A DNA stretch of 64,000 nucleotides from Bacillota bacterium (lineage in GTDB: Bacteria > Bacillota > UBA994 > UBA5500). Made by a program: the position numbers and the translations under genes. The notes under the pieces were generated by a model. The model was not told the origin of the DNA, searched no databases, and saw only the letters and a program-made list of their open reading frames with translations. The stretch is from the NCBI GenBank assembly GCA_029781045.1, contig JAKOXL010000001.1, forward strand, positions 8,084-72,083. Reading direction: 5' to 3'. This document shows, one piece after another, positions 24,905 through 62,020 of the stretch. Position 1 is the stretch's first letter; each line of letters opens with the position of its first letter.

Positions 24905-24912
24905 ATAAAAAA

Positions 24913-41158: not shown

Positions 41159-42265
41159 TTAGGCACGGGAAAGCACGCTAATGCTGCCGTTCTTGCTAGC
41201 AGCCATCACCTGCGTTTTGATGGCCGCCTGCTGCCAGTTTTCCGTAGATGCCTTATAGTGTTGCTTATCCTCTACACTAGCCACAAGGGCTGGCAAATCA
41301 ACACTTACACGGCCGCTTCGTGTCTGCAGGTCCAGCTGGTACCCCCTGGCGTCTCCCGTAGCCAGCTCAACTTGCACCGAACCATTGGTGGTAGTTAGAG
41401 TAATGGTGCCATCGCTGGTGGGTTCCAGAACCCCGCGAATCGAGCCATTCTTGCTAGTTGCTAAGAGGGAACCAACTTGAGCCGTAACCGTTATGCTGCC
41501 GTTCTTGGTCTCCAATTGCCAATCATCATGGGATTGCCCTCGTACCTTGATGGAGCCGTTCTTGGTCACAGCCCTACCGGCACCACAAACCTCTTCCACG
41601 GAAATAGAACCGTTCTTGCTCACTAGATCCATCTGGGTCAGCAACCGACGAGGGATGGCAATGTCAAAGGAGACGGAGCCGCGGATTTCTTCGCTCACTC
41701 GCCAGGCCAACTGCAGTTCCCCATCTTTCTGTTCCTCGTTTTGCAGCAAATATTGCTCCACCAACTGCCGGGCCTCTGCCTCACTATCGGCTTGAACTCG
41801 AAAACGTAACTGCACCGCGATATGTTCATCATCACTGGCCCGCAACCGTAGGTTACCGTTCTTGCTACTAATGTCCAAGTGTAATCTCTCTACCGTATCG
41901 GGAATGGCAACGGTCCGCTGTTCTTCCCAGGTGTAATGGGTGCCCCAGTGGCCGCCCAAAAACCCCTGCAGCCAGTCGGCTAGGCTCTGCCCCTCTCCCA
42001 ACTCCTGACTAATAGCCGATCTCACCTCTTGTAGGGCATCCTCTACCTCACTGGTGATTTCCTCTCCGATCTCCCGCAGTTCCTGCCCCAGTTCTTCCAA
42101 CAATGATGGGCTTTCCCTCATCACCGGCACCGGGATAGGTCCAACCTCTGGAACCTCCGGGGGCACCGACGTCCCTTCCAGTGCCTTGAGCAGGGCCAGG
42201 GCCTCTTCCGAGTTGATACGCCCCTGCTCCAACAGTTTTAGAATCCGCATTCTCGCTTCCGACAT
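41159..42265 (-). CDS. DUF4097 (YvlB-like putative adhesin / beta-helical repeat) protein with N-terminal helical domain
   Basis: N-terminal MSEARMRILKLLEQGRINSEEALALLKA motif. The C-terminus has repeated KNGSI(x)V beta-strand repeats. Paralog of the upstream gene. Confidence 0.6.
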   Translation of the reverse strand: MSEARMRILKLLEQGRINSEEALALLKALEGTSVPPEVPEVGPIPVPVMRESPSLLEELGQELREIGEEITSEVEDALQEVRSAISQELGEGQSLADWLQGFLGGHWGTHYTWEEQRTVAIPDTVERLHLDISSKNGNLRLRASDDEHIAVQLRFRVQADSEAEARQLVEQYLLQNEEQKDGELQLAWRVSEEIRGSVSFDIAIPRRLLTQMDLVSKNGSISVEEVCGAGRAVTKNGSIKVRGQSHDDWQLETKNGSITVTAQVGSLLATSKNGSIRGVLEPTSDGTITLTTTNGSVQVELATGDARGYQLDLQTRSGRVSVDLPALVASVEDKQHYKASTENWQQAAIKTQVMAASKNGSISVLSRA

Positions 42266-42282
42266 CCGGTCTTACCTCCCCA

Positions 42283-43374
42283 CTACACATTGATCTTAAT
42301 CGCCCCACTGACTGTGCGGGCCTTTACGGTCTGTTGCCATTCCTTATCGGCAAAATCTGGCGACTCGGCCACCAGCACGCGCTGTCCCGGCCGTTTCTGC
42401 TCTTCGTGCACTAGCAGGTCGGGCAAGTTATGCTTGATGCTACCGGCGGTGGTAGCTGCATCAATGCGGTAGCCGATGGCAGCCCCATGCGGCAGCTCGA
42501 CCTTAATAGAACCATTGATCGTGCGCAGATCCAGCTGGCAATCGCTGGCGCTAGTGATCTCCACATTGATCCCACCATTGGCGGCTTGAGCCTGCCCTCT
42601 TTCGATTACACCCTCAATCGTCACCGCTCCGTTAACCGAGCTGGTTTGCAAGTCCTCAGCTTGCAGCTTTTCTCCAGCTACTTTACCGTTTACCGTTTTC
42701 AGCACCATCATAGTAGCAGCCAAATTGGCCAGCTGAATGCTACCGTTGGTGGAAGCCAGACATATCTCGCTGTACTGGCGCTCGGGCGCTAGCAACTCCA
42801 TACTCACGCTGGCGTTTTGACCAAACAGGCGCCGTGCTTCTACGGTTAGATGACCTCCTGCACTGTCTACGCGCACCAGCCTATCAGCTATAGCCTTGGC
42901 ATTAGCTTCATCGTCAGCCCGCACCTTTAATTGCAGGCTTAAATGCCAGCGCTGATCAGGGCTGCGCCCCAACTCAATTCGGCCATTGGTGTTCTGCAGA
43001 TGGATCCGAGGGCTCTCCTCCGAAAACTCCCCTTCCATATGGCGCTCAAAGGAAAACTCCCTTCTGCCACCCAGTAGCCCGCCTAGAGCCCGCCAAGTCT
43101 TCTCCGGCCACAGACGCTGTGCTTCACTTTTTACTTTTTCGGCCTCGACCCGAGCTGCACGAGCAATTTCCCGCGCACGGGCTACTTCCTCTCTTACTGC
43201 CTGCCGCGCTCTACGTTCTTCCTCCTGCACAGCTCTGTGCAGTGTGGATGGGGTTTTGTCAGCTGTTCTGCTCTGAGCCAGAGCTTCCAACAACCCTACC
43301 GCTTCATCAGCCGTGATCTTGCCTTCTTCCAGCATCCGTAACACCAGCATTTGCTCTTCTGACATAGCAAACAC
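42283..43374 (-). CDS. DUF4097 (YvlB-like) protein, paralog of the downstream gene
   Basis: N-terminal SEEQMLVLRMLEEGKITADEAVGLLEAL motif. The C-terminus has NGxI/TNGSI repeats. Confidence 0.6.
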   Translation of the reverse strand: MFAMSEEQMLVLRMLEEGKITADEAVGLLEALAQSRTADKTPSTLHRAVQEEERRARQAVREEVARAREIARAARVEAEKVKSEAQRLWPEKTWRALGGLLGGRREFSFERHMEGEFSEESPRIHLQNTNGRIELGRSPDQRWHLSLQLKVRADDEANAKAIADRLVRVDSAGGHLTVEARRLFGQNASVSMELLAPERQYSEICLASTNGSIQLANLAATMMVLKTVNGKVAGEKLQAEDLQTSSVNGAVTIEGVIERGQAQAANGGINVEITSASDCQLDLRTINGSIKVELPHGAAIGYRIDAATTAGSIKHNLPDLLVHEEQKRPGQRVLVAESPDFADKEWQQTVKARTVSGAIKINV

Positions 43375-46553: not shown

Positions 46554-47333
46554 ATGATGTTCTTTATTCCTAGACGCAAAATCCTTCTCCTCACCAGTCT
46601 GATATTAGTACTGGCCGTGGGTTTTACCGCCAGCCGCTTCTACTCACCGGAGCAAGCGGGGCAAGTGATCAGCACGTTGCTCAACTTCAACCGTAAGGTC
46701 CCTATATACTGTGTGCAAACTGATGAAAAGCGTATTGCCATCAGCTTCGATGCGGCCTGGGGCGCCGATCGTACCGATGAGTTACTGACCATTCTCGACG
46801 AGTACGATGTGAAAACCACCTTTTTCCTGGTGGCCTTCTGGCTAGAAAGATACCCGGAGGTGGCAGCCCGCATCGCTGCTGCTGGCCATGAAATTGGCAA
46901 TCATAGTGCCACTCATCCGCACATGGCCCAGCTTTCCAAAGAGCAAATCCGCCAAGAAATACTAACCACCCACCAGCTGATTAAGGAGATCACCCAGCAA
47001 GAAGCTAAACTATTTCGCCCACCCTTCGGCGAGTACAACAACCTGCTCTTAGATACCTTAGAAGAGTTGGGCTACTACACTATCCAGTGGAGCATCGATT
47101 CCCTGGACTGGCGTCCCACTACACCAGAGGAAATCGTACAGCGGGTAACCAGTAAGATAGCTCCCGGTGCCATCGTTCTCTTCCATAATAACGGGGAGCA
47201 TACACCGGCCGCCCTGCGACCCATATTGGAGTACTGTCGACAAGAGGGCTATGAGGTGGTGCCCATTTCCGAACTCTTAATCAAAGGAGATTACTATATC
47301 GACAAGAGCAACGGTATGATGAGACCCAAATAG
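46554..47333 (+). CDS. polysaccharide deacetylase family protein (NodB domain, PdaB-like)
   Basis: N-terminal TM segment. NodB motifs (FDAAWG, HSATHPHM, RPPFGEYN, LFHNNG). Confidence 0.75.
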   Translation: MMFFIPRRKILLLTSLILVLAVGFTASRFYSPEQAGQVISTLLNFNRKVPIYCVQTDEKRIAISFDAAWGADRTDELLTILDEYDVKTTFFLVAFWLERYPEVAARIAAAGHEIGNHSATHPHMAQLSKEQIRQEILTTHQLIKEITQQEAKLFRPPFGEYNNLLLDTLEELGYYTIQWSIDSLDWRPTTPEEIVQRVTSKIAPGAIVLFHNNGEHTPAALRPILEYCRQEGYEVVPISELLIKGDYYIDKSNGMMRPK

Positions 47334-47348
47334 GAGGCACATTAAGGG

Positions 47349-47590
47349 TGCCGTCGCACTAGGGTCTCTAGCATCCGAACCAGGAAGCTATTGCTATTGG
47401 GGCCGCAGATATACGCACAGCGCGCTGGACCCAATAATTGGGAGAGTGAGGGAGGCAAGGAAAAGCAGAGACAAGGGGCCAATTGCCTTGGGAGCCGAGC
47501 TCATTCCGACAGAGCTGGGCTGCGCTCTAGTATGGCCATGGCCCGCAGGTGCATAACGAAACAGGGGCTGTCGTGAGACAGCCCCTAATG
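47349..47590 (+). repeat. copy 2 of the ~230-nt conserved noncoding element (candidate sRNA/MITE-like), ending in the GGGGCTGTC-GTGA-GACAGCCCC hairpin
   Basis: See copy 1. Lies between convergent genes. Confidence 0.5.
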
Positions 47591-47601
47591 CTTTTCAAGG
47601 C

Positions 47602-48759
47602 CTATACCACCGAAGGTTCTCTGAACAACTCGCCACGGGCAAAGCGGCCTAGACTCATGGGCTCGATGGGAATCTCCGTTTTCTGTCCGAGGATACTCTG
47701 GGCCAACAGCACCCCCACCATGGGGGCGATCATAAAACCATGGCCGCTAAAGCCGCAGGCCAGATAGAAGCCGGGTACCTCCTCCACCGGCCCCAGAATG
47801 GGGGTTCTATCGGGCGTCATATTGTAAAGTCCCGCCCACTGGCGCACCACCCGGATATGCCGTAGGGGTGGCAGCAGCCAGGTTATTTTCTCAGCCATTT
47901 CCTCCAGGAACTGCCAACTAGCTTCCATATTATAGCCTGGCTTCTCCGTCGGATCCCCTAACCCCATGATGAAGCTGCCATGGGGAGTTTGCTGGCAGTA
48001 GAGGTTATGATGGAAAGACATTACCATGGGGCGCTGCATAGGTTCCACCGGCTCAGTAATAAGAATCTGATGCCGCTCCGAGTGGGTAGGAATCTCGAGG
48101 CCCACCATAGCAGCCACATCCTGCGACCAACCTCCTGCCGCGTTGACTACTACGGGGGTAGAAACATAGCCCCGGTCGGTATGCACCCCTTGGATGCGGT
48201 CGCCATCCCGCTCAATACCGGTGACCGTCGTATTGGTATAGATCTCGACTCCTAAGCGGCGTGCTGCCTTGGCATAGGCGTCGGTTACTTTAAAGGGATT
48301 GCAATGGCCATCGGTGGGGCAATAGGTGGCGCCCAACAGCTGCTCCGTGTTCAAATGGGGTACAACTTCCTTGGCCTCCGCCGGTGTCAACAGTTCTACC
48401 TGTAAGCCGTGGGCCTTTTGCAGGGCCACATTCTTTTTGAATTGCTCCCAGCCGGCTTCCGTATAGGCTAGCAGCAGATAGCCACCCTGGTTAAACTCAA
48501 TGTCATCGTCGTAGTCCAGTTCTTCATTCATGTTCTCAAACATACGCACACTGGCCATGGACATACGTAGGTTCATCTCCGTACCCCATTGGGCCCGCAC
48601 TCCAGCCCCACAGCGGCCGGTGGCTCCACTGGCCAAGAAATTTCGCTCCAACACACAGATATTGGTAAGCCCCCGCTTGGCCAGATTATAGGCAATAGAA
48701 ACACCGTTAACACCTCCACCAATGATTACCGCATCAGCAGTCTTCTTCACGGGGCTCAC
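47602..48759 (-). CDS. FAD-dependent oxidoreductase (DAO family; sarcosine oxidase beta / OoxB / proline dehydrogenase beta-like)
   Basis: N-terminal ADAVIIGGGVNGVSIAYNLAKRG dinucleotide-binding motif. 385 aa. Last gene of an overlapping five-gene operon. Confidence 0.75.
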   Translation of the reverse strand: MSPVKKTADAVIIGGGVNGVSIAYNLAKRGLTNICVLERNFLASGATGRCGAGVRAQWGTEMNLRMSMASVRMFENMNEELDYDDDIEFNQGGYLLLAYTEAGWEQFKKNVALQKAHGLQVELLTPAEAKEVVPHLNTEQLLGATYCPTDGHCNPFKVTDAYAKAARRLGVEIYTNTTVTGIERDGDRIQGVHTDRGYVSTPVVVNAAGGWSQDVAAMVGLEIPTHSERHQILITEPVEPMQRPMVMSFHHNLYCQQTPHGSFIMGLGDPTEKPGYNMEASWQFLEEMAEKITWLLPPLRHIRVVRQWAGLYNMTPDRTPILGPVEEVPGFYLACGFSGHGFMIAPMVGVLLAQSILGQKTEIPIEPMSLGRFARGELFREPSVV

Positions 48760-49033
48760 CTCCTAAGATGGCGGCAAAGGTAACCGGCCTACTGGGCTGC
48801 CTATATTTGGCGGGCTTCTGCTCTCTGATGGGCACGCCGGTCATAGCCGCTATTTCTCGCTCAATTAGGGCACGGCAGGTACGACCCTGGCAGGGCCCCA
48901 TTCCGGCTCTCGATATGCGTTTTATCTCATCCACCGTCGTGTAACCTGAAGCGATTAGCTCACGCAAGCGTTTCAGGGTCAGATCCTCACAGCGGCAGAT
49001 AATTGTCTTCTCATCGGGTCCCATCCGTTTCAC
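48734..49033 (-). CDS. (2Fe-2S)-binding BFD-like domain protein
   Basis: CRCEDLT...GPCQGRTC cysteine pattern of BFD-like [2Fe-2S] domains. 99 aa. Confidence 0.65.
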   Translation of the reverse strand: MKRMGPDEKTIICRCEDLTLKRLRELIASGYTTVDEIKRISRAGMGPCQGRTCRALIEREIAAMTGVPIREQKPAKYRQPSRPVTFAAILGGEPREEDC

Positions 49034-49517
49034 CCTCCACCATTATATTACGCACTTCCTGGGCCAACTCCCTGGGCACCGCCAGATGAACAATAGCTGT
49101 GCGTTCAAAGGTGGGCGGGTTCTGCACCCTAATCACTCGGCCCTTACCCACCGGCTCACCAGCTCTATTGAGGGCGGTAACCACTTCTCCCGGCTGGGGC
49201 AATGGTAAAAGCTCATAGGGCAACTTCAGCAGGGCCTCAGTTTCGCTATAGGTCATATCTACCACAAAGATGGCTAGGCCCGGACAGTTGGCCACACAGA
49301 GTGCACAGCCATTGCATTGGTCCCAATCGATCTGTGGCCTATCGTTTATGTCAGCAAAGGGCCGTATTGCATCTTGCCGACAGGCGGTGGCACAAGGATT
49401 GCATGGTATACGTTGAAAACACTCAATAATAGCCACTGGCCCTTTAGCCAACCTTTCTTCCGTTGGTAGGACTTCTGCCAGATCGGCAACCGTCGGAATC
49501 CCTGTACTCTTAAGCAT
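49011..49517 (-). CDS. 4Fe-4S ferredoxin-like subunit
   Basis: CNPCATAC and CNGCALCVANCP cysteine clusters. 168 aa. Confidence 0.55.
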   Translation of the reverse strand: MLKSTGIPTVADLAEVLPTEERLAKGPVAIIECFQRIPCNPCATACRQDAIRPFADINDRPQIDWDQCNGCALCVANCPGLAIFVVDMTYSETEALLKLPYELLPLPQPGEVVTALNRAGEPVGKGRVIRVQNPPTFERTAIVHLAVPRELAQEVRNIMVEGETDGTR

Positions 49518-50604
49518 CAGCAGTCACCCCTTTCTCTACCCAGGCCAGACCAGCGCGAATCTTCTCGCCTACTGGCCCAGCACGTAGAGCCGACAGCTGG
49601 GCCTTAGCTTCTGCCAGTTGCTCCTGCGCCTCTTTACCCCCTAGCCCTAAGCTCAAAGCGGCACTAAGACCGGCTAGTTGACCTTCCACCATAGCACTGC
49701 TGGCCTCTTCCACTCCCGCCACATCGCCGGCCACATAGATGCGGGGATTACTGGTGCAGAGGTGGGCATCGCGCACCGCCACAGTTCCACCCAACTCAGG
49801 CACATACTTCATCTGACACCCAGCCTGCCACAACAGGTCGCTGAGTGGCGACAGCCCCACCGCTAAACAGATGACATCTACGGCAAAGTGCCGTTCCGTA
49901 CCGGCAACAGGTTGCCGGTTGGCATCCAGCTGCCATATGGTCGCCCCTTCCACCGCCTCTTCTCCATGGGCCTCTTTAATGGTGTGGCTAGTGTAGATGG
50001 GTACGCCGGCCCGACGGACCTTAGCCGCATGTACTAGGTAGCCCCCGATGGTGGGAGCCGCTTCTACGATTGCCGCCACCTCCACTCCCGCCTGCAGCAG
50101 CTGATAGGTAACAATGAGTCCGATATTGCCGGCTCCGACCATGAGCACACGGCGCCCTGGTCTGACTCCGTGCACATTCATTAAGGTCTGCACCGCCCCC
50201 GCTCCATAAACTCCGGGCAGATCGTTATTGGGGAACGCCAACATCCGCTCACAGGCACCAACAGCCACGATAATCCGTTGGGCCCGCACCTTGATAACCC
50301 GGCCCTTATGCTCCGCCAACAATACGCCGTCTTCGTAAATGCCTAAAACTGTAGCTTCCTGCAGAATTGCTATGTTTTCTTGGCTGCGGGCTGCGGCCTC
50401 CAGCTTTTTGGCGATTGCTATCCCCCGACTGCCAGCAAACTGCTGTTGGGAGCCAAAGAACTTGTGGGTTTGCTTAATCAACTGCCCCCCCAGGTGGTCG
50501 GATTCGTCCAACAACAAGACTTGGGCACCGAGCTGGGCTGCCGCCACAGCGGCCCGCAGACCGGCGGGACCACCACCAATTACTGCGATCTGCGTGTTAA
50601 TCAT
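49510..50604 (-). CDS. FAD/NAD(P)-binding oxidoreductase (sarcosine oxidase alpha N-terminal / OoxA / HcnB-like)
   Basis: IAVIGGGPAGLRAAVAAAQLGAQVLLLDE, plus a second Rossmann motif (VGAGNIGL). Confidence 0.75.
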   Translation of the reverse strand: MINTQIAVIGGGPAGLRAAVAAAQLGAQVLLLDESDHLGGQLIKQTHKFFGSQQQFAGSRGIAIAKKLEAAARSQENIAILQEATVLGIYEDGVLLAEHKGRVIKVRAQRIIVAVGACERMLAFPNNDLPGVYGAGAVQTLMNVHGVRPGRRVLMVGAGNIGLIVTYQLLQAGVEVAAIVEAAPTIGGYLVHAAKVRRAGVPIYTSHTIKEAHGEEAVEGATIWQLDANRQPVAGTERHFAVDVICLAVGLSPLSDLLWQAGCQMKYVPELGGTVAVRDAHLCTSNPRIYVAGDVAGVEEASSAMVEGQLAGLSAALSLGLGGKEAQEQLAEAKAQLSALRAGPVGEKIRAGLAWVEKGVTADA

Positions 50605-50906
50605 CTCAACACTCCCTTCCCTTGTTGAGTTTCCACGCGCATGCCTGCCCGCAGCTTTTCAACACAAACGCGTACATTGGGTACCCCGTCCACCGTCATT
50701 AAGCAGGATGAACAGGCACCTATGGCACAAAAAAAGCCCCGTGGCCTTTTCTTCACATGACTATGGCTTAAGGTTCTGATACCAGCGGCATGCAAGGCTG
50801 CAGCAATCGGTTCTCCCTCATAGCCCTCCAGTTGCTGGCCGTCAAAGGTAAAAGTCACCTTGGGCCCCTTCTCAAACTGCAAAATGGGATGATCCGTAAT
50901 TCGCAA
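50601..50906 (-). CDS. (2Fe-2S)-binding subunit (HcnA / OoxA N-terminal domain-like)
   Basis: C-x-AIGACSSC-x..C cysteine pattern. TTG start at 50906 with a strong GGAAGGAGGA RBS; the track ATG at 50936 has a weak RBS. Confidence 0.55.
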   Translation of the reverse strand: MRITDHPILQFEKGPKVTFTFDGQQLEGYEGEPIAAALHAAGIRTLSHSHVKKRPRGFFCAIGACSSCLMTVDGVPNVRVCVEKLRAGMRVETQQGKGVLR

Positions 50907-50974
50907 CCTTTTGTCCTCCTTCCGTATAAATTCCATATTGTTAATCTTCTGTCTAGAGCATTAAACTCCTGCTT

Positions 50975-51014
50975 CTAGCAAAGAAAAGGGTGATCCACTA
51001 GCGTGCATCACCCC
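50975..51014 (-). terminator. terminator-like hairpin plus U-run inside the 5' leader of the amine-dehydrogenase operon (candidate attenuator)
   Basis: On the minus strand GGGGGTGATgcacgctagtggATCACCC is followed by TTTTCTTTGC, about 70 nt upstream of the start codon. Confidence 0.4.
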
Positions 51015-51124
51015 CATAATTACCATATGAGTCCGGCTATCGATTATTACTTTCTCAGCGGCATCCAGCTCACTCCTGCTCGTCATTAGCATAAGCTAAT
51101 GCCATTGCAGCATACAGGATATAG

Positions 51125-51172
51125 CAAGAGCCGAGGGAGACACTAGGTAGTCCTAGCATTTCCCCCGGCTCT
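51125..51172 (-). terminator. probable terminator of the soj-spo0J-DUF554 operon
   Basis: On the minus strand GAGCCGGGGGA...TCTCCCTCGGCTC forms an 11-bp stem with one mismatch and a structured loop. Confidence 0.3.
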
Positions 51173-51173
51173 C

Positions 51174-51842
51174 TTAGAATCTGGCTAACAGAGCTGCGAT
51201 CAGTATGGAGGGCAGAAGATTGCCTACGCGGATCTTCTTCATCTCTAAAATGTTCAAACCGATGGCGACTACCAAGATGCCGCCCACCGCACTCATCTCG
51301 GTAATCATCGCTTCACTAATTAACACCGATATCCATTGGGCTCCAAGTGTTATAGCCCCCTGGTAGACGAGAACCGATAAAGCCGATAGTGCTACCCCCA
51401 TACCCAGAGTGGAGGCAAAGAATATGCTGGAGATGCCGTCCAGCAAAGACTTGGCAAAAAGGGTTTCGTGGTTTCCCGTTAGGCCGCTTTGCAGCGATCC
51501 CATAATGGCCATGGCCCCCACACAATAGACTAGAGTAGCCGTGACAAACGCCTCTCCCACATTTCCCCCCTTGCCCAGAAGGCGTTCCGCCCTTTGCCCG
51601 AAGCGCTGCAGACGGTCCTCAATTCGTAGCGCTTCCCCCACAAGGCCACCCAGCACTAGGGACGCAATCAAGATAAGGCTATTGTTGGTTTCCCATGCAC
51701 CCTTAAGGCCAATAAGCACAATGGCTAACCCTATGGCAATGCCACTGGTCTCCTTGTACTTATTGGGAATACCGGAACGCAAGAGCACGCCCAACAAGGT
51801 ACCTGCACAAATTGCTGCCGCATTTACTATGGTGCCTAACAC
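51174..51842 (-). CDS. DUF554 family membrane protein
   Basis: VLGTIVNAAAICAGTLLG N-terminus typical of DUF554. GTG start with a GGAGGT RBS; the longer track ORF overlaps the RBS. Lies 19 nt downstream of the spo0J stop. Confidence 0.6.
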   Translation of the reverse strand: MLGTIVNAAAICAGTLLGVLLRSGIPNKYKETSGIAIGLAIVLIGLKGAWETNNSLILIASLVLGGLVGEALRIEDRLQRFGQRAERLLGKGGNVGEAFVTATLVYCVGAMAIMGSLQSGLTGNHETLFAKSLLDGISSIFFASTLGMGVALSALSVLVYQGAITLGAQWISVLISEAMITEMSAVGGILVVAIGLNILEMKKIRVGNLLPSILIAALLARF

Positions 51843-51860
51843 TTTAATACCTCCTGCCAA

Positions 51861-52721
51861 TCACTGCTGCAAGAGCAACTCCAAAAGACGTTCCAGTTCT
51901 TCATTGTCATAGTAGATGATTTCAATCTTACCCCGCTTACGCCCTGGCAGTAGTCGCACTTGAGTTCCCAAGGTGGACGCCAGTCGCCGCTCCAAGTCTT
52001 CGATTTCCGCTGGGCGTTTTTTCTTTGTTTCACGTGAAACAGAAGCAGCCTGTCCTGCCAAGTGGCGCTTAACCAACTCCTCCGTCTGTCGCACGTTCAA
52101 TCCCTGCTCGATCACCATTTCTGCTAGACTAAGTTGCAAAGCCGGATCCGCCACGGCCAAAAGGGCGCGCCCATGACCAGCAGAAATTGTTTCACGTGAA
52201 ACAAGCTCCTGCAAAGCCTGGGGTAGCTGCAATAGCCGCAGCGTATTGGCCACATGGGGACGACTACGGCCTACCCTTTGGGCCACCTCCTCCTGCGTCA
52301 GCCCCAGCTGTTTCATCAGCTGTTCATAACCCCGGGCTTCATCTAGGGGATTCAAATCCTCCCGCTGCAAGTTCTCCACGATGGAGAGCTCCATCATCTC
52401 CCGATCGCTTAACTCCTTGACCAAGGCTGGAATATCCTCCAGCCCCGCCAATTGGGCCGCCCGACAACGCCGTTCGCCGGCCAATAGCTGATAACGTTTC
52501 CCCTTGGGTCGGACTATAACGGGCTGCAGTATACCGTGCAGCCTTATGGATTCGGCCAACTCTAGTAAAGTCTCCTGCTCAAATTCACGACGAGGCTGAT
52601 ACGGATTAGGATCAATCAAACGCAAAGGCACTGTAGTTACATCCTTAGCCGTTTCCGTTCCGGGGTCAACTGGTATTAAGGCCTCTAACCCCCTACCTAA
52701 ACGCGATCTAGCCACGAGCAA
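51861..52721 (-). CDS. spo0J: chromosome partitioning protein ParB/Spo0J
   Basis: ParB box (LLAGERRCRAAQLAGL) and an HTH. Lies downstream of soj. Confidence 0.9.
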   Translation of the reverse strand: MLVARSRLGRGLEALIPVDPGTETAKDVTTVPLRLIDPNPYQPRREFEQETLLELAESIRLHGILQPVIVRPKGKRYQLLAGERRCRAAQLAGLEDIPALVKELSDREMMELSIVENLQREDLNPLDEARGYEQLMKQLGLTQEEVAQRVGRSRPHVANTLRLLQLPQALQELVSRETISAGHGRALLAVADPALQLSLAEMVIEQGLNVRQTEELVKRHLAGQAASVSRETKKKRPAEIEDLERRLASTLGTQVRLLPGRKRGKIEIIYYDNEELERLLELLLQQ

Positions 52722-53472
52722 TTACCTCCTTAGCCAACTCCGAGTAAACTTCAGCTCCCCTAGACTTGGGATCGTAAATTATAATCGGCTGCCCAAAGCT
52801 GGGCGCCTCACTCAAGCGCACATTGCGGGGAATAATGGTGGCAAAGACCTTTTCTCCAAAGTAGTTCTGCACTTCCTCCACCACCTGCTGCGATAAGTTG
52901 GTACGGGAGTCATACATGGTCAGCAGTGCCCCGAACACCTCCAACTTGGGGTTCAAATGCCGTTGCACCAACTGAATGGTGTTTAGCAATTGCCCCAATC
53001 CTTCTAATGCATAGTACTCACACTGCACAGGGACCAGCACCCCATGGGCAGCCGTAAGCGCATTTAAAGTGATAAGTCCCAAGGAGGGCGGACAATCAAC
53101 TAGAACATAGTCATAAAAGGCCAATACGGGTTCCAAAGCCTCTTTCAACTTGGTCTCCCGCGATATGGCCGGCACCAGTTCAATCTCGGCACCCGCCAAC
53201 TGAATAGTAGCCGGCACCAGCTCCAGCCCCGTAACCTCTGTGGGCTGAATTACCGCCTCCACTGGCAGCCCATCGATCAAGACATGATAGATACATCGCC
53301 GCAACCGACGCCGGGCAATGCCTAAACCGCTGGTGGTATTCCCTTGGGGATCCACGTCAACAACTAAGACCTTCTTTCCCTCCTGGGCCAAGCAAGCCCC
53401 TAAGTTGACGCAGGTAGTGGTCTTGCCGACTCCTCCCTTTTGATTGGTAATGGCTAATACCTTGGCCACCAC
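52708..53472 (-). CDS. soj: chromosome partitioning ATPase ParA/Soj
   Basis: Deviant Walker A KGGVGKTTT. 254 aa. Confidence 0.9.
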   Translation of the reverse strand: MVAKVLAITNQKGGVGKTTTCVNLGACLAQEGKKVLVVDVDPQGNTTSGLGIARRRLRRCIYHVLIDGLPVEAVIQPTEVTGLELVPATIQLAGAEIELVPAISRETKLKEALEPVLAFYDYVLVDCPPSLGLITLNALTAAHGVLVPVQCEYYALEGLGQLLNTIQLVQRHLNPKLEVFGALLTMYDSRTNLSQQVVEEVQNYFGEKVFATIIPRNVRLSEAPSFGQPIIIYDPKSRGAEVYSELAKEVIARG

Positions 53473-53570
53473 TCTTCACTCCTTATGTCATAATCGCACC
53501 TACCCAGTTGTCCCTGCTTACTTCTCTCTTCACCGCTTTTACTCCTGCCAAAGCGAAAGAAAAGGCCTGG

Positions 53571-54389
53571 TTAATTGCTCATTAACCAGGCCTTCCAATC
53601 GGCTTCAAGAACCAACAGCGGCGCACCATAAACCGCTTCCAACGCGGAGAAAAAGGGCTGTCCTTGCTCCATTAACTGCAAAAAACGCGCCATCCCCCCA
53701 TCTCCCAGCTGTTCATATAGAAACCTAACCAAGCTTAAAGACTCTTGATACACCACGTTCTCCGGCAAAGCCGAAAACTCACGGGACAGTTGCCTCAAGC
53801 TGTGGGGTTGTTGGCGCCAATCATCTCCGCCTTCCTGCCAGACATAACCACGCAGGCGCATTTCCCAGTACTGGGCCATGCCCTCGCTAAACCAAACGGG
53901 ATAAGCCGCCACTGCCTGATAATCAAGCAACAAGTGGGCTAGCTCATGCACTACTGGGCCAAGCAGACTATAATGGGTCAAAGCATCATCCCGATTCAAA
54001 TGGGGCTGCCAAGCCTGGGACCCCAGAAGCTCCAACCTACCAAGATAATAGGCTCCAAGGGTGGGAGCATAGTCGCCGGCCCCCAAAGCTACCTGTAACG
54101 ATTGCTGCGATTCATGCAGTCTCACCCTAATCGGTTTGGGAGTCCGATCGGATAACCATGCCTGCAAATCCACTAACCCCTGTTCCAATAGCTCCAGAAC
54201 AAACTGGGCCTCCTCCCGGTCGTTCGTATACAACAGTTCGAAGTTCTCGCTCCGCAGCACCTCTCCCTCACCCAGAGGCCGCCAACGGCTAAGGGTGCGA
54301 ACTACCCTATAGCCAGGTCTCCAAGGCATGACAAGTACTGTGATTAACGTGATGATCAACAGCAGATCAATTCCTTTAAACCGGCGCAT
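53571..54389 (-). CDS. membrane-anchored putative zinc metallopeptidase (HExxH) inserted between noc and soj
   Basis: N-terminal TM segment. HELAH motif with a downstream Glu (WFSEGMAQYWE), suggesting a gluzincin. Start at MRRFKG with an AAGGAGGTGA RBS. Confidence 0.45.
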   Translation of the reverse strand: MRRFKGIDLLLIITLITVLVMPWRPGYRVVRTLSRWRPLGEGEVLRSENFELLYTNDREEAQFVLELLEQGLVDLQAWLSDRTPKPIRVRLHESQQSLQVALGAGDYAPTLGAYYLGRLELLGSQAWQPHLNRDDALTHYSLLGPVVHELAHLLLDYQAVAAYPVWFSEGMAQYWEMRLRGYVWQEGGDDWRQQPHSLRQLSREFSALPENVVYQESLSLVRFLYEQLGDGGMARFLQLMEQGQPFFSALEAVYGAPLLVLEADWKAWLMSN

Positions 54390-54482
54390 TGCTCTCACCT
54401 CCTTTTTCTTAGTCAAAACAAAAAGCACTGCTCCGTAGAGCGTGCTTCCTATTATACATTATGTAAACTAGCTTTGACCAGC

Positions 54483-55310
54483 CTAACGTTTGGCAATACG
54501 GACCGTCACCGTTAGGTAATCTTCCTCGTCCTGCTCCATAACCTCCGCCTTGATACCGGCCTCTTTCATCAATCTTGCAGCATCGCGCACAGTATTGAGG
54601 AATATACGCACATCTTTTGGAACAAAACGGCGGACGGGTTTATGGGCCGTAGCCGCTACTTCCTCCGCACTGCTGCCTGCCAAATATTGCTCGATTATAT
54701 CTTCCGTTTGCTTAACGTTGAGGTTCTGAGCAATGGCCAACTCGGCCAACCGTAGCTGCGCCTCTGCCTCCTTCACCCGTAGCAAGGCACGGGCCTGTCT
54801 CTCATTGAGCTTCCCCGCCGCCAGCAAATTCTTAACCGGTGAAGTCAAGCCTAATAGCCGTATTTTATTGGCTATGGTTGACTGACTCTTTCCCAGCCGC
54901 AGGGCCAAATCTTCTTGTCGTATATCAAACTCATCAATCAGCTGCTGATATGCCGCTGCTTCTTCCAGCGGGTTGAGATCTTCCCGCTGCAGATTCTCAA
55001 TCAAGGCAGCTTGTGCCACTTCTCGATCCGTATATTCTTTAACTATAGCCGGAATAGTCTGCTGCTTGGCCAACTTGGCCGCCCGCCAGCGCCGCTCCCC
55101 GGCAATAAGCTCATAAACACTTCCTAAACGTCGTACGATGATGGGCTGAATCACACCCATCTGGCGTATGGAATCTGCCAATTCTTGTAATTTAGCCTCA
55201 TCAAACTGTCTCCGCGGCTGATAAGGATTTACTTTTATATCTTCTAATGGAATGCTGATGATTTGCTCCCCTGGCCCTGAGTTTCCTCCAAACCAACGCA
55301 CAGCCATCAC
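54483..55310 (-). CDS. noc: nucleoid occlusion protein Noc (ParB-like)
   Basis: ParB N-terminal motifs (VIQPIIVRR, LIAGERRWRAA). Position between rsmG and soj, as in Bacillus. Confidence 0.8.
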   Translation of the reverse strand: MMAVRWFGGNSGPGEQIISIPLEDIKVNPYQPRRQFDEAKLQELADSIRQMGVIQPIIVRRLGSVYELIAGERRWRAAKLAKQQTIPAIVKEYTDREVAQAALIENLQREDLNPLEEAAAYQQLIDEFDIRQEDLALRLGKSQSTIANKIRLLGLTSPVKNLLAAGKLNERQARALLRVKEAEAQLRLAELAIAQNLNVKQTEDIIEQYLAGSSAEEVAATAHKPVRRFVPKDVRIFLNTVRDAARLMKEAGIKAEVMEQDEEDYLTVTVRIAKR

Positions 55311-55371
55311 CCCTTCTCTCTCTTATTCTGCTTGCAAGGGCGTCTCTCCTTCCCGCTACAGCCAAATATGC

Positions 55372-56094
55372 TTAGAGCAAGGGGCGTTTCTCCGCCAACC
55401 CGGGACGACGCGGAAACTTGCTGGGAGTGGAACTGTACTTGTCTACCCGCACCAAGGTGCGGGCTGCACCAGAAGGCAATCGCCATTCGCAGGTCTTGCC
55501 CCTATCTCCCCCCAGAAGCGCCAAGCCCGGCCCCGCTTCCGCCAACTCCTCTGCCATCTCCGGACCTTTCTGAGCCACAAAACATCCGCCCACCCGCACC
55601 AAAGGCATACAATACTCCGCCAGAGTTGCCAGCCGAGCCACGGCGCGAGCCACTACTAAATCGTACTGTTCGCGGAAATGGGGGTCATGTCCTACCACTT
55701 CTGCCCGCTCGCAGACCACGCCAACCTGCTTTGCCAAGCCCAGCTCGTTCACTGCCATCTGCAGAAAACGGGTCTTCTTGTTAATGGAATCCAATAGTAC
55801 AACTTGCGTGTTAGGAAAGGCTATGGCTAGAACTAGACCAGGGAAACCTGCACCGGTACCCACATCTATCACACTTTCTACCGAGGCCATATCCACTGCT
55901 AAAGCCACCGACAGAGAATCCAGGAAGTGCAGTTCATAAATCTCTTGCAGACCAGTGATGCGGGTTAGATTGATCCTTTCATTCCACTCCTGCAAAAGCC
56001 GACTGTAATGGGACAACTGGTCTAAAGCTGTACTAGACAAAGAAACCCCTAGCCGCTCCGCTTGTGCTCGCAACCACCCATTGCTTTCACTCAC
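55372..56094 (-). CDS. rsmG: 16S rRNA (guanine527-N7)-methyltransferase RsmG (GidB)
   Basis: SAM-MTase motif (DVGTGAGFPG) and conserved synteny after mnmG. Confidence 0.9.
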   Translation of the reverse strand: MSESNGWLRAQAERLGVSLSSTALDQLSHYSRLLQEWNERINLTRITGLQEIYELHFLDSLSVALAVDMASVESVIDVGTGAGFPGLVLAIAFPNTQVVLLDSINKKTRFLQMAVNELGLAKQVGVVCERAEVVGHDPHFREQYDLVVARAVARLATLAEYCMPLVRVGGCFVAQKGPEMAEELAEAGPGLALLGGDRGKTCEWRLPSGAARTLVRVDKYSSTPSKFPRRPGLAEKRPLL

Positions 56095-56106
56095 AACCTA
56101 TTCCCC

Positions 56107-57975
56107 CTACTTATGGGCCTTGAGGGCCACCAGAAGTACACTGATGTCGGCCGGCGTAACACCCAGAATTCGACTGGCTTGTCCCACCGATTGGGGACGA
56201 TGTCGAGCCAGTTTCTCCCGCGCTTCCATAGACAAGCCCAATAGCCTGCTGTAGTCAAAGTCTTCGGGAATCCGCTTTTCCTCCAAACGCAAGAAGCGCT
56301 CCACACTCTCAATCTGTTTCTGGATGTACCCGGCATATTTGACCTCAATCTCCACCCGTTGACGGAGGGTAGCTGAGGCGGCTGCCACTGCTTCTGGAGC
56401 AAAGGGCAAGAGAGCCTCTAAGTTCACCTCGGGCCGCCGCAATAACTGGGCTAAAGACGCTCCCTGTGTCAGAGGAGAAGTACCTGCCGCTATTAGCACC
56501 TCATTGACTTCCGGGCTAGGCGGCACCACAGTGCTCTCCAGCAGCTCTTTCAGCTCCTCCATCTGGCGCACCAGTTCCCGGTGTTCTCTGATGGCCTCTT
56601 CCCCAACCAGGCCCACCTGCCAGCCCTTTTCCCGCAAGCGAACATCCGCATTATCATGACGCAAGAGCAAGCGATATTCGGCCGCCGACGTGAGCATTCG
56701 ATATGGCTCGCTCACACCCTTGGTGACCAAATCATCGATCAATACTCCAATATAGGCCTCTGAGCGCTTCAGGATCAGCGGTTCCCGTCTCCTTAAGAAT
56801 TGGGCCGCATTAATACCGGCCATTAACCCCTGGGCAGCCGCCTCTTCATAACCCGACGACCCATTTATCTGACCAGCGGAAAACAGCCCTCTAATGGCCT
56901 TAAACTCCAGCGATAACTTCAATTGTGTGGGGTCAATATAGTCATACTCAATAGCATAACCTGGCCGCAGAATCTCTGCCCTTTCCAGCCCCGGGATGGT
57001 GCGTAAAGCAGTATACTGCACGTCCTCCGGCATACTGGTGGAGAAGCCCTGCACATACATCTCATCGGTGTCATAACCTTCCGGTTCCACAAAAATCTGA
57101 TGTCTTTCCTTGTCTCGAAAGCGCACAACCTTATCTTCCAAGGAGGGACAATAGCGGGGTCCCACTCCTTCAATCTCTCCACTATAGAGCGGTGCTCGGT
57201 GCAGGTTCTCCAGGAAAATGCGATGTGTCTCAGCGTTGGTATAGGTCAACCAGCAAGACAACTGTTTCCCATAGCAGTTAAGGAGCCCAGAAAAACCCTC
57301 CGGCAGGTCATCGCCCGGTTGCTCCAACATAAGCCTGGTATTAACGGTCTTACCGCTTACCCGCGGCGGGGTACCTGTCTTAAACCGGCCCATGCGGATA
57401 CCCAGCTTCTGCAGACTAGCCGTAAGAGCTAGAGCAGGCTGCAGGCCGTTGGGGCCGCTGGCAAAACTGGTCTCCCCGATTATTATCCGCCCGCGTAGGT
57501 AAGTGCCGGTGGTAAGAATAACACAGGGGGCCAAAAAGACGGTACCCGTCTGTGTTTTTACTCCCCTCACTTGACCGTCTTCCACCAACAACTCATCCAC
57601 CATCGCCTGTCGTAAACTTAAGCCCTCTTGACTGGCCAAGACTTGCCGCATCCGGCTTTGATAGCGTTGCTTATCTACCTGGGCCCGCAGTGCCTGCACC
57701 GCTGGTCCCTTGCTGGTGTTTAACATGCGTACCTGTATGCAGCAGGCATCCACTGCCCGCCCCATTTCACCGCCTAAGGCATCGATCTCTCGCACAATAT
57801 GACCCTTAGCTGGACCCCCGACCGATGGATTACAAGGCATAAGAGCCACACTATCCAAACTGGAAGTCAGCATCAATACTCGGAAACCTAAACGGGCAGC
57901 AGCCAGACCCGCTTCACAGCCCGCGTGTCCAGCTCCCACAACGATCACATCGTAATTGCCTGCCACAAAACCCAT
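56107..57975 (-). CDS. mnmG: tRNA uridine 5-carboxymethylaminomethyl modification enzyme MnmG (GidA)
   Basis: [19 protein letters not shown] motif. Start at MGFVAG with a GGAGGG RBS. Confidence 0.9.
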
Positions 57976-57992
57976 TGTCTTGCATCCCTCCG

Positions 57993-59366
57993 CTATTTGC
58001 CGATGCAAAAACGACTAAATATCTCCTGCGCCAAGCCCGGACTAGCCTTAAGACCCACCATTTCACCTAGACGATCGGCGGCTGCCTGCAAATCGATTTG
58101 CACCATATCCAAAGGCCAGCCGGAAGCCACCGTTTGCTCTGCTGCTCTAAGGCTACCCAGGGCTTCTCGCAACAACTGCTCCTGCCTAACGTTGGCTACA
58201 AAGGGACTGTCCGGTTGTAATATGCCCTGAAGCACCAGGTCGGCTATGGCCGCCCGCAGCTCATCCAACCCCTCGCCGCTGATGGCAGCTACTCTAAATA
58301 CCCTCTCCTGTGCCAGACGCTCTTCATCGGCAGCCGATAACCCCAAAGGTAAATCTCTTTTATTCAGCACCACAAACCGCCGCTGTTCCTTCACCGCCGC
58401 CAAGGTAGTCAAGTCTTCCCGCTCCAAAGGTCGACTCTGGTCAATTACTACCAGCACCAAATCAGCTTCTTGCATGGTCTGCTGAGCCAAAGACACCCCT
58501 ATGCGCTCCACCGGATCTTCTGTCTCCCTTAACCCGGCTGTGTCCAAAAGGCGAATAGGAATGCCTGCAACAGAGAAATACTCTTCAATAACATCGCGGG
58601 TGGTACCAGCAATGTCGGTCACAATAGCCCTTTCCTTTCCCACCAGGGCATTCAAAAGCGAAGACTTACCCACGTTAGGGCGCCCCACGATGGCTACCTG
58701 CAGCCCCTCCCGTAGTACTCTTCCGGCAAAACTGGTGCTGAGTAAGAGCTCTACCTGATGGATAGCCTCCTCTAGGCCTTCTAACATGCGTCTACTAGTG
58801 ATTTCAGGAATATCATGTTCTGGAAAGTCAATGCTGGCTGCGGCCGTGGCCAACAACCCCATGATCTGCTCGCGAATAGCCAAGACCCGCTCCGAAAGCT
58901 CACCCCGCAGTAGGCGGCCCGCCTGTTCCAGTGCCGTCTTAGACTTAGCCTGAATAAGATCAATCACGGCTTCCGCTTGCATTAAATCCAGTTTGCCATT
59001 GAGGAAGGCCCGCTGGGTAAACTCACCTGGTTCGGCTAAACGTACCCCCAGGCGTAGTAGAAGAGCTAATATCTCCCGCGTAATCAAGGCGCCGCCATGA
59101 CTGTTTATTTCCACCACATCTTCGCCCGTGTATGAATTAGGCCCCGGCATATATGTAACTAGCACCTGGTCTAGCATCTGTTCCTTTTCATCTACGACAT
59201 AACCCAAATATAGGTGGCGAGCAGCAAAGCTCTTCTTCTCCCGTCCCCGGGTAGTACGGAAGACCCGCTGTAGAGTGGCGAGAGATTCCGGACCACTCAT
59301 GCGTACAATACCAATCCCGCTTTCTCCCGGAGCCGTAGCGATAGCTGCGATGGTTGTCTGCTCCAT
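57993..59366 (-). CDS. mnmE: tRNA modification GTPase MnmE (TrmE)
   Basis: G-domain motifs ([14 protein letters not shown]) and the C-terminal CIGK tetrapeptide. Confidence 0.9.
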
Positions 59367-59467
59367 TTTAATCCACCTCCCGGCTGTGATACTATATTAT
59401 ACCCTAGCGTCCCTAGTAAAAGAAAAACCCGTGGCAGCCCTTGCTGCCCGGGTTTCTGGCTCAGCAT

Positions 59468-60085
59468 CTACTTCAGCGCAATAACTACCTTCCGGTAGGG
59501 TTCTTCCCCTTCGCTATAGGTAACTATTTGGCTATCGTGTTGCAAAGCTGTATGGATAATACGCCGCTCATGGGCGCACATGGGCTCCAACATAATCCGC
59601 CGCCCCGTACGCTTTGCCTTTTCCGCTAACCAAGTAGCCAAGCGCAACAAGGCTTCTTCTCGCCTTGCCCGATAACCGCCGGCATCAAGCACTACCCGTT
59701 GCCGCGCTTCCGTGTTGCGATTATATACCACATTGGCCAAGTACTGCAGCGAATCCAGGGTTTGACCATGCTTTCCAATTACTAACCCTAGGCCTTGCCC
59801 TTCCAAATCCGCCTTGATAACTTCATCGGTTACCTTCACATCTACACGCACCCGGGCCCCCATACGTTCACAGACGCCTGTTAGAAAGTCGACCAGTCTC
59901 TGTAACGGATCCGGTTTTACAGTAACCTTAACTTTGGCCAATTTTCCCCCTAAAATACCAAAAAATCCTTTGCTCGGTTCCTCCAGTATCTCTGTTTCTA
60001 CCTGTTCCGAGCTAACTCCTAGTTCTGCTAGAGCTAAAGCTATGGCTTCCTCCACTGTCTTACCTTGCTTTACCACGCTTTGCAT
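59468..60085 (-). CDS. jag: Jag/KhpB (KH plus R3H RNA-binding protein)
   Basis: N-terminal Jag_N (MQSVVKQGKTVEEAIALALAELG) and a C-terminal R3H domain. Lies downstream of yidC. Confidence 0.85.
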   Translation of the reverse strand: MQSVVKQGKTVEEAIALALAELGVSSEQVETEILEEPSKGFFGILGGKLAKVKVTVKPDPLQRLVDFLTGVCERMGARVRVDVKVTDEVIKADLEGQGLGLVIGKHGQTLDSLQYLANVVYNRNTEARQRVVLDAGGYRARREEALLRLATWLAEKAKRTGRRIMLEPMCAHERRIIHTALQHDSQIVTYSEGEEPYRKVVIALK

Positions 60086-60770
60086 CTGGTAGCCCTCCCT
60101 CCTTCAAGCTATACTGGCGCTCTAAGAAGCGGGTAACGAGGTGATGTTGTATGATAGTAAAAACGTTGCGGGATACCCAATAAAGTCCTACAGCCACCGG
60201 GTAGCTAATGGTGATCCATCCCATGAAAATGGGCAAAATGAGGTTCATGGAGCGCATCATGGCCGCATCTTGGCCACTACCCTGGCTTATCTGCTGTTGC
60301 TGGATAACAGTTGTTAAGACAGAAAGAATTGGCACCACCAAATATCCAGGATTCTGCCGTATAAGCATCCAGAAGGTCTGCTGGGCATCAGGCAAAACAA
60401 GACTTAGACCCAAAAAGGAGGGAGCCGAACTAAATATCTCCGGCTGTCTTAAGGCACTAAACATGGCTATAATGATGGGAAACTGTATTAAGATAGGAAA
60501 ACAACCGGCTGCAGGGTTTATCCCATATTCTTTCCAAAGAGCTAATGTCTCTTCATTAACCTTATCGGGATCCTTGTACTTCTTTTTTATCTCCTCTACC
60601 TTAGGAGCAACCAACTTCATCTTATAAGAAAACTGCATTTGCTGTAAGTTCAAGGGAAAAGTTATAAGCATCACTACTAAAGCCATCCCAATAATGGCCA
60701 ATCCATAGCTTCCGGTAGCTTCAGCTAAGGAATTTAGAATGACGCTCATTAAATTGGTTAGAAAAGCCAA
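60060..60770 (-). CDS. yidC: membrane protein insertase YidC/OxaA (SpoIIIJ-type, short form)
   Basis: 236-aa 5-TM 60-kDa IMP family member. Synteny rnpA-yidD-yidC-jag. Confidence 0.85.
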   Translation of the reverse strand: MAFLTNLMSVILNSLAEATGSYGLAIIGMALVVMLITFPLNLQQMQFSYKMKLVAPKVEEIKKKYKDPDKVNEETLALWKEYGINPAAGCFPILIQFPIIIAMFSALRQPEIFSSAPSFLGLSLVLPDAQQTFWMLIRQNPGYLVVPILSVLTTVIQQQQISQGSGQDAAMMRSMNLILPIFMGWITISYPVAVGLYWVSRNVFTIIQHHLVTRFLERQYSLKEGGLPDAKRGKAR

Positions 60771-60790
60771 TTAAACTCCCTCCTCATACC

Positions 60791-61012
60791 CTAAACTAAT
60801 GGATCATAGCCGCCCGGGTGCAACGGATGACAGCGGAGTATCCGCCTTATCCCCAACAAAAGTCCTTTGCCTAATCCATACTTCTCCAAGGCTTGAATCA
60901 TATACTCGGAACACGTAGGGCGAAATCGACAGTTAGGGCCGAGAATAGGAGATAGAAAACGCCTATATAAACCTACCATCCCAATCAACCCTTTGGTTAA
61001 CAATCTACTCAT
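60791..61012 (-). CDS. yidD: membrane protein insertion efficiency factor YidD
   Basis: [38 protein letters not shown] matches the YidD family. Confidence 0.8.
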
Positions 61013-61346
61013 CCTGCCACAAACCTGCTTTCTGGGTCAGCTTGGCCAACGATTGGACAATTTGAGCATAACTCGCATCCCGTGCCGCAACCCGCACGAT
61101 TACTACCAAATGATAACCGGGCTTAACCTGTCGACTCTGGGCGCGCCAAGCTTCTCGTACCAAGCGTTTTAAGCGATTGCGCCCCACACTTCCCGCTACC
61201 TTACGGCTCACCGATATGCCGAGCTTCACGCCTGAAATCGATCGCGGTAAATAGTACAAAACCAAAAATCTATCAGCTACCGATTTGCCCTCTTGATAGA
61301 CAGCGCTAAAGTCACTGCGCTTGGTCAGGCGTTCTTCCTTGCGCAT
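61005..61346 (-). CDS. rnpA: ribonuclease P protein component
   Basis: 113-aa basic protein containing the RNR motif ([10 protein letters not shown]). Confidence 0.85.
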
Positions 61347-61434
61347 ACTTTAGCCTCCCAATCGCCACATTCTTAGTAAATTATACCACAATCCCCTGGC
61401 GTCCATGCGAAAAAAAGGCCACGCAGTCGCGGCC

Positions 61435-61569
61435 TTAAGCAGATAGCACTTTTCTCCCTCGCGCACGCCTTGCTTTTAGGACCTTGCGTCCGCTTGCCGT
61501 GCTCATACGCTTGCGAAAGCCATGTACTTTCTTACGTACCCGGTTATTGGGCTGAAAAGTTCGTTTCAC
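61435..61569 (-). CDS. rpmH: 50S ribosomal protein L34
   Basis: (M)[46 protein letters not shown] start with an AAAGGGGTG RBS; the longer track ORF is an upstream in-frame extension. Confidence 0.9.
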
Positions 61570-61689
61570 AGCGATACACCCCTTTCTCAGAACAAAACCC
61601 TGCAGTATCCCAGCCATTATAGCAAATAGGGAACCAGGAATCAATGTGATTCCCGCTGCTACCTGCGGGTTTGGATAAACTGGTTGTAC

Positions 61690-62020
61690 ACAGTTGTGGA
61701 TAACTCTATCTACAACCCTGTTAGTTCACATAACATGTGTCAATTTCACATAAAATGGGGCCATAATGACATCTCTTTGTGGAAAAGGTAGTAGATTTGG
61801 GCCTGTTTAGGTAACAAAATGGTAACAAGACTACTTTTTTATGTCTTTTATCCACTAAGTTATCCACAGCTTGTGGACAAGGTTGTTTATAACGTGGGCG
61901 AACGTTTAATCGTATCAGTTCTGGACAATACCCAATCTGACAATATTCGTGCCATCAGACATTTATCCACAGCTTTTGTGGACTTTTTGTGGGTAATTCC
62001 AGAAGTTATTCACAAATTAT
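61690..62020. promoter_or_regulatory. oriC part 1: DnaA-box cluster between rpmH and dnaA (includes the dnaA promoter region)
   Basis: Perfect TTATCCACA / TGTGGATAA boxes at 61695-61703, 61860-61868 and 61963-61971. At least six 1-mismatch boxes (e.g. 61848-61856, 61872-61880, 61978-61986, 61989-61997, 62007-62015). Confidence 0.75.

Follow-up and report, generated by a model that had tools for sequence, protein, structure and literature searches.

A putative amine dehydrogenase operon and its upstream region were analysed in a stretch of 64,000 nucleotides from a Bacillota bacterium (assembly GCA_029781045.1, contig JAKOXL010000001.1, positions 8,084 to 72,083 of the forward strand), referred to below as the window. 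Five overlapping open reading frames (ORFs), g1 to g5, occupy 47602-50936 on the minus strand; all of them were confirmed, with overlaps between consecutive genes of 4, 8, 23 and 26 nt, and Pfam domains were assigned to all five, so that the gene content and order given in a preliminary description of the sequence were upheld. Upstream of g1 lie a spacer of 237 nt, in which a hairpin is followed by a U-tract, and the co-directional genes DUF554, parB and parA (Table 1). Judged from their matches to proteins of solved structure, the five genes most likely encode a bacterial version, split over more genes, of the dye-linked L-proline dehydrogenase complex of archaea (PDH1 type). The hairpin is most likely the ordinary terminator of the parAB-DUF554 unit, adjoining the predicted promoter of the operon, and not a regulatory leader.

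Table 1. Coordinates of the operon genes, the upstream signals and the neighbouring genes in the window.
Feature	Position	Strand	Basis
g1, 2Fe-2S subunit, Fer2_4	50601-50906 (ORF listed to ATG 50936)	-	Pfam Fer2_4 1e-31
g2, FAD/NAD(P) Rossmann flavoprotein, Pyr_redox_2	49510-50604	-	Pfam 7e-34
g3, ferredoxin-like subunit, 2x[4Fe-4S] type, 168 aa	49011-49517	-	Pfam Fer4_7/Fer4 4e-06
g4, BFD-like 2Fe-2S / SO_alpha_A3 subunit	48734-49033	-	Pfam SO_alpha_A3 3e-13, Fer2_BFD 3e-11
g5, DAO-family FAD dehydrogenase, catalytic (beta) subunit	47602-48759	-	Pfam DAO 6e-85
Two-way terminator hairpin closing the operon, common to the convergent polysaccharide deacetylase gene	47562-47587	both	terminator scan
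Shine-Dalgarno sequence of the g1 TTG start, GGAAGGAGG	50915-50923	-	read in the sequence; conserved in relatives
Promoter-like box, GCAGGAGTT-N11-ACAGAAG, SigH-type -35/-10 layout	50946-50972	-	conserved in 11 related loci
Predicted intrinsic terminator hairpin with U-tail; 10-pair stem, G.G mismatch, GCUA loop	50980-51015	-	-20.5 kcal/mol, z = -4.46
Spacer specific to the window's lineage	51016-51125	-	blastn: no homolog in any fetched locus except those of the same species; no ybjN similarity
Hairpin A, near-perfect, 21 bp, one base after the DUF554 stop	51126-51173	-	-35.6 kcal/mol, z = -6.89
DUF554 membrane protein gene, co-directional, last after parA-parB	51174-51860	-	Pfam DUF554 1e-80
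parB	51861-52721	-	
parA	52708-53472	-	
Second ParB-like (Noc-type) gene	54483-55310	-	

The start codon of g1 is almost certainly TTG 50906, because homologs align from residue 11 of the listed frame, the protein is called as 101 aa in relatives, and the upstream ATG is absent in one of them, L089 (the loci of relatives were fetched by exact-protein look-up and are labelled L001, L089 and so on). The listed start at ATG 50936 over-extends g1 by 10 codons and places its ribosome-binding site inside the extension (50904-50936); the long form (111 aa) is also picked by automatic callers in the window's species. An upstream mini-ORF following AGGAG (ATG CTC TAG) was rejected, its ATG being absent in L089. 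Similarly, g4 probably starts at ATG 49024, and it is called as 96 aa in relatives. The g3 cysteines C33, C39, C42, C46, C68, C71, C74 and C78 were found to be invariant in 38 homologs.

The best solved relative of g5 was found to be 1Y56_B, the beta subunit of Pyrococcus horikoshii PDH1, with a score of 307 bits (1.7e-90, residues 7-378); against SoxB the score was 206 bits (~1e-59), and glycine oxidase was matched at ~1e-33. The PDH1 alpha subunit, 1Y56_A, was matched by g1 at residues 10-88, by g2 at residues 109-259 and by g4 at residues 412-481, and since these three genes match successive parts of it, the alpha subunit appears to be split over three genes. The PDB matches of g2 comprised 2GAG_A and 1VRQ_A in addition to 1Y56_A, and the soxA model was matched at positions 14-100, 169-498 and 515-598 by g1, g2 and g4, respectively. 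Beyond position ~598, that is, in its C-terminal folate/GCV_T part (~600-996), the soxA model was left unmatched by these three genes, and neither soxD nor soxG was present among the five genes of the operon. The soxA and soxB models scored 163 and 241 bits, far under their cut-offs of 1164 and 529. A heterotetrameric sarcosine oxidase was therefore ruled out on the missing SoxA C-terminal part, the missing SoxD and SoxG and the sub-cut-off scores. The kinship to PDH1, sarcosine oxidase, HcnABC and OoxAB-type complexes that had been recognised in the preliminary description was right, and the 1Y56 matches refine it to a predicted split-alpha L-proline dehydrogenase.

Scanning of species-representative genomes for orthologous operons returned 80 loci, distributed over many Bacillota and also Atribacterota, Zixibacteria, Riflebacteria and others, and the five-gene order was the same in nearly all of them. 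Genes for a ferredoxin and an aldehyde:ferredoxin oxidoreductase (AOR) were found directly 3' of the operon in 14 loci, and an aldehyde dehydrogenase gene directly 3' of g5 in 10; six of the seven downstream aldehyde dehydrogenases tested exceeded the NCBIfam equivalog cut-off for L-glutamate gamma-semialdehyde (pyrroline-5-carboxylate, P5C) dehydrogenase. On the 5' side, PAS-containing sigma-54 activators (11 loci), SNF sodium symporters (7 loci) and GntR/FCD regulators (7 loci) were present. The single activator tested, that of L007, was closest to the proline-responsive PrdR, with a score of 607 bits, under the 795-bit cut-off, and with the N-terminal 125 residues missing. Additionally, 17 of 70 loci were found to have strong sigma-54 -24/-12 matches 28-97 nt ahead of g1. 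Proline is the probable substrate, because orthologous operons have P5C dehydrogenase or AOR genes downstream and SNF symporters and PrdR-like sigma-54 activators upstream; the assignment draws on this gene context in other taxa and on the closeness of g5 to PDH1 beta.

In six loci (L007, L010, L020, L033, L040 and L005), TGT-N10-ACA palindromes (e.g. TGTCAATATACTGACA) and repeated GTGTCAG motifs were observed 100-300 nt before g1, upstream of the sigma-54 promoters. In Clostridiales, enhancer-binding-protein sites of this palindromic kind have been described (PMC6615313), and the palindromes and motifs observed here are probably the binding sites of the adjacent PrdR-like activators; some of them were mis-scored as terminators by the terminator scan, which is crude. 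Variant operon architectures were also encountered. The order in L166 (1508-6413) was Fer2_4, Pyr_redox_2, ferredoxin, BFD, ferredoxin and AOR, with no DAO gene within the 6.5 kb examined, and L045 and L061 have, upstream of g1 and not after g4, a DAO gene that is more distantly related (34-39% identity to g5); L049 was also listed among the variants.

The hairpin proper of the window (50988-51015) reads GGGGGUGAUGCAC-GCUA-GUGGAUCACCC, with the tail UUUUCUUU at 50980-50987, and was found to be more stable than its shuffled versions (0 of 200 equally stable). It sits 74 nt before TTG 50906 and was overlooked by the terminator scan owing to the G.G mismatch in its stem. The hairpin and U-tract of the preliminary description agree with these coordinates within 5 nt, and the CATTAGC-ttat-GCTAATG hairpin reported there was located at 51084-51101. 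Hairpin A, further upstream, has no proper U-tract, occurs as a single copy in the window and is absent from all relatives; its interpretation as a repeated mobile element was rejected for the window on the single copy. Because hairpin A has no U-tract, and since no other canonical terminator was found by the terminator scan and by folding between the DUF554 stop and 50980-51015, the hairpin at 50980-51015 is the first canonical terminator after DUF554. The order parB-DUF554 is conserved in relatives. The whole 237-nt spacer between DUF554 and g1 folds with z = -6.25.

The comparison with relatives was found to favour a terminator of the upstream unit. In blastn searches of the 237-nt spacer against all fetched loci, nt 161-237, comprising the hairpin and the sequence downstream of it, were ~79% identical in L089 and L090, and only nt 195-237, 3' of the hairpin, were conserved in L001 and L095. 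For nt 1-160, no homolog was found in any fetched locus outside the same species, which in a comparison of leaders across orthologous operons counts against an attenuator. An intact ybjN gene (PF10722) was present between DUF554 and g1 in L089 (1515-1970), L090 and L094 (1307-1759). In L095 (~269-500), ybjN is truncated and a different terminator starts ~10 nt after its stop, and in L001 (4276-4440) a degenerate ybjN remnant, with a score reached by 0 of 300 shuffles, is accompanied by a retained terminator of the L095 type; the ybjN terminator outlasts the loss of the gene among close relatives. The homologous hairpin of L089, GGGUGAUUCAU-GUUA-AUGGAUCACCC followed by U5, has, relative to that of the window, a base pair near the loop end of the stem changed on both sides from C-G to U-A, and it directly follows ybjN. 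Because it starts 32 nt after the ybjN stop, there is no room for a sensor, and the L089 hairpin is identified by its position as the predicted terminator of ybjN, that is, of an upstream unit. A decayed ybjN in the first 160 nt of the window's spacer, of the kind seen in L001 and L095, was unsupported: tblastn with YbjN proteins gave chance matches only, and the colinear alignments to L089 and L094 were matched by 75 and 31 of 200 shuffles, respectively.

The promoter-like box between the hairpin and g1 was the sole non-coding element kept across relatives and the sole part of the spacer shared with L001 and L095. Its consensus is RnAGGAnnT-N11/12-nnnGAAn. The end of its GAA is 37-42 nt from the start codon in all of the 11 loci but L087, where the distance is 99 nt. 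In the window, the GAA ends 40 nt before the g1 start. The gap between terminator and box, counted from the U-tract of the hairpin, was 8 nt for L089 as well as for the window, and lay at 80-84 nt (values of 80, 81 and 84) for L001, L095 and L004; L003, L093, L094 and L167 keep the box and have no terminator by the criteria of the scan, with sufficient upstream sequence. Because the distance from hairpin to box varies and that from box to start codon is near-constant, it is the box, and not the hairpin, that is fixed relative to the gene. The SigH promoters of Clostridioides difficile have AGGA and GAA elements 17-18 nt apart (PMC7438776). A SigH matrix derived from the 27 mapped C. difficile promoters listed in Table 3 of the same paper had the box as its top match in the 240 nt upstream of g1 in 11 of 11 loci, with a spacing of 17-18 nt; the consensus tested was -35 RnAGGAwWW and -10 RnnGAAT, with a gap of 11-12 nt. 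The box may thus be a SigH-type promoter, the sigma factor and the promoter activity both being predicted. No sigma-70-like promoters were detected at the scan thresholds (0 sites in 47000-52000), and TGGCAT-N6-ATGCT at 51088-51104 was rejected as a sigma-54 promoter of the window's spacer, its GG-GC spacing being one base too long.

The explanation that is put forward, and held as a whole with good but not complete confidence, is that a split-alpha PDH-type operon, preceded by the terminator of the upstream unit, has its own AGGA/GAA promoter and is controlled at initiation. The complex would oxidise proline to P5C, and electrons would pass through FAD and the Fe-S centres. Transcription of parA-parB-DUF554 would end at the hairpin, as would that of the ybjN unit at its own terminator in relatives retaining ybjN. 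Transcription of the operon would start from the AGGA-N17-GAA box, leaving a 5' untranslated region of ~30 nt predicted to hold only the ribosome-binding site. Initiation would involve a SigH-like promoter in the window's clade, and sigma-54 with a PrdR-like activator, or GntR/FCD regulators, in other lineages; control at this step rather than by attenuation is suggested because operons of other lineages appear to be driven by sigma-54 promoters and PrdR-like activators. Several observations weigh against this explanation. It leaves unexplained an unusually structured stretch of 160 nt that runs from the DUF554 stop to the hairpin. The window was found to carry none of the accessory genes seen beside orthologous operons, among them the P5C dehydrogenase, AOR and activator genes on which the proline assignment draws in other taxa. 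The box of the window scores 10.6 bits, a modest value reached by 16 of 200 shuffles, and in the relatives the -10 element ends in G, C or A and never in the consensus T. Additionally, a looser match, AGGA-N18-AGAA, is present at 51078, upstream of the hairpin.

The co-directional genes, the spacer of just 237 nt, the interrupted U-tract and the G.G mismatch in the stem would also suit a leaky terminator, with the operon partly co-transcribed with parAB-DUF554 by a fixed, unregulated read-through besides transcription from its own promoter. This was judged unlikely, as the gap of about 80 nt, or the lack of a terminator, in relatives shows that the relationship is not conserved; nothing opposes it directly, and it is compatible with control at initiation, to which it adds no regulation. 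A lower probability was given to regulated read-through, in which 50980-51173 would be a recently evolved, species-specific cis-regulatory RNA or attenuator, or a small RNA, gating the passage of transcription from parAB-DUF554 into the operon. If true, the cis-regulatory form would represent a new attenuator class confined to the window's species.

The preliminary description also proposed an attenuation leader. In such a leader the hairpin would be a conditional terminator, with a promoter upstream of it and with 51016-51125 sensing a ligand or protein as a riboswitch, a T-box or a site of protein-mediated attenuation. This layout is suited by the strongly structured spacer and by a hairpin that makes a good terminator just 74 nt ahead of the start codon, and AGGA-N18-AGAA at 51078 could serve as the upstream promoter. 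Searches of Rfam 15, with the whole window at the gathering threshold and with 50850-51250 at E <= 10, gave no riboswitch, T-box or glycine match, the latter search returning chance snoRNA and miRNA matches only. T-box, glycine and other riboswitches were rejected on this result, the T-box and glycine models being among those searched. No antiterminator of comparable stability was found by folding, the best structure with the 3' arm of the terminator blocked being 16.6 kcal/mol worse, so that there is no competing pairing. The box lies downstream of the hairpin and not upstream, the putative sensor region is without a homolog in any relative, only 31 nt separate the coding gene from the hairpin in L089, and four loci (L003, L093, L094 and L167) have the box and no hairpin. 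Apart from the loose match at 51078, neither the sigma-70 scan nor the sigma-54-like sequence at 51088-51104 described above provided a promoter for such a leader. The attenuation leader was therefore not borne out, both grounds for refutation named in the preliminary description, a leader unconserved among orthologous operons and a hairpin that terminates the upstream unit, speaking against it, and conditional termination is considered very improbable. Hardly credible is an independent, lineage-specific small RNA gene extending from hairpin A to the terminator (51173-50980), for which the strong fold, the canonical terminator at its end and its absence from relatives, hence insertion or recent evolution, would speak, and against which stand the lack of a detected promoter and of an Rfam match, its single copy without homologs, and a first hairpin that begins one nucleotide past the DUF554 stop, in better agreement with a 3' untranslated region.

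The window is the neighbourhood of a replication origin. A plus-strand ORF of 450 aa at 62091-63443 is the probable dnaA gene, judged by its location and length alone; ~11 kb separate it from the proline dehydrogenase operon. The minus strand of the 51861-63443 region also has long ORFs whose sizes would suit mnmG and mnmE. A further match to the SigH matrix, GCAGGAGTA-N-AGAGAAG with a score of 11.7 bits, was observed at 53546 (minus strand) in the spacer 5' of parA, ~75 nt before the parA start; the C. difficile Spo0J-like gene of the corresponding neighbourhood is listed as SigH-dependent (PMC7438776). Elsewhere in the window, six minus-strand tRNA genes, five of them clustered, were found with Rfam (16026-16116; 24124-25176), and two adjacent paralogs at 41159-43374 on the minus strand encode SHOCT-like and DUF4097 ('toastrack') proteins.

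The attenuator lead can be dropped, and nothing here points to a new riboswitch for proline or secondary amines. The useful remainder is the enzyme family, a five-gene, split-alpha, ferredoxin-containing PDH-type operon whose gene order is kept in many anaerobic Bacillota and in Atribacterota and other phyla, that is annotated only generically and that by its context would constitute a proline-to-glutamate oxidation route. In the literature library searched, no paper characterising the bacterial form of the complex was found; this form is a reasonable target for enzymology, and it would extend the known archaeal system rather than represent a new kind.

The terminator-promoter junction before the operon is ordinary. 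It resembles the usual succession of a Rho-independent terminator and the next promoter in having a GC stem and U-tract after a co-directional gene and a promoter-like box 8 nt downstream, and the same layout is found in L005, where the U-tract of a terminator-like palindrome runs straight into the sigma-54 -24 element. It differs from the usual junction in that the DUF554 stop and the terminator are set apart by 160 nt of RNA that is structured and specific to the lineage. The box itself shares with the SigH promoters of C. difficile and Bacillus the AGGA and GAA elements and their spacing, and is unlike them in that the -10 element of the relatives' boxes never ends in T.

Among enzymes, HCN synthase HcnABC, opine oxidase OoxAB and D-hydroxyproline dehydrogenase LhpBEF, which are likened here to the window operon by their described composition, have the same building blocks, namely a 2Fe-2S protein, a Pyr_redox_2/BFD flavoprotein and a DAO flavoprotein. 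They are encoded by two or three genes, without a separate ferredoxin subunit, in Proteobacteria. This group has been discussed in PMC4575208. The sarcosine oxidase SoxABDG (PDB 2GAG, 1VRQ) is similar in that SoxB resembles g5 and the soxA model matches g1, g2 and g4, whereas the window operon carries Fe-S domains and a ferredoxin instead of the folate part, SoxD and SoxG. The operon of the four-subunit L-proline dehydrogenase (alpha-beta-gamma-delta) of Thermococcus profundus and P. horikoshii adds a ferredoxin-like and a small subunit to two flavoproteins, and its extra subunits may correspond to g3 and g4. P. horikoshii PDH1 (PH1363/PH1364; PDB 1Y56) differs from the window operon in that the latter divides the alpha subunit among three genes and has an additional ferredoxin gene, g3, located between g2 and g4, and in that the host of the latter is an anaerobic Bacillota bacterium, in which the complex is known from its genes; the likeness lies in the beta subunit, which matches g5, and in the three alpha domains, which match g1, g2 and g4 in the same order.

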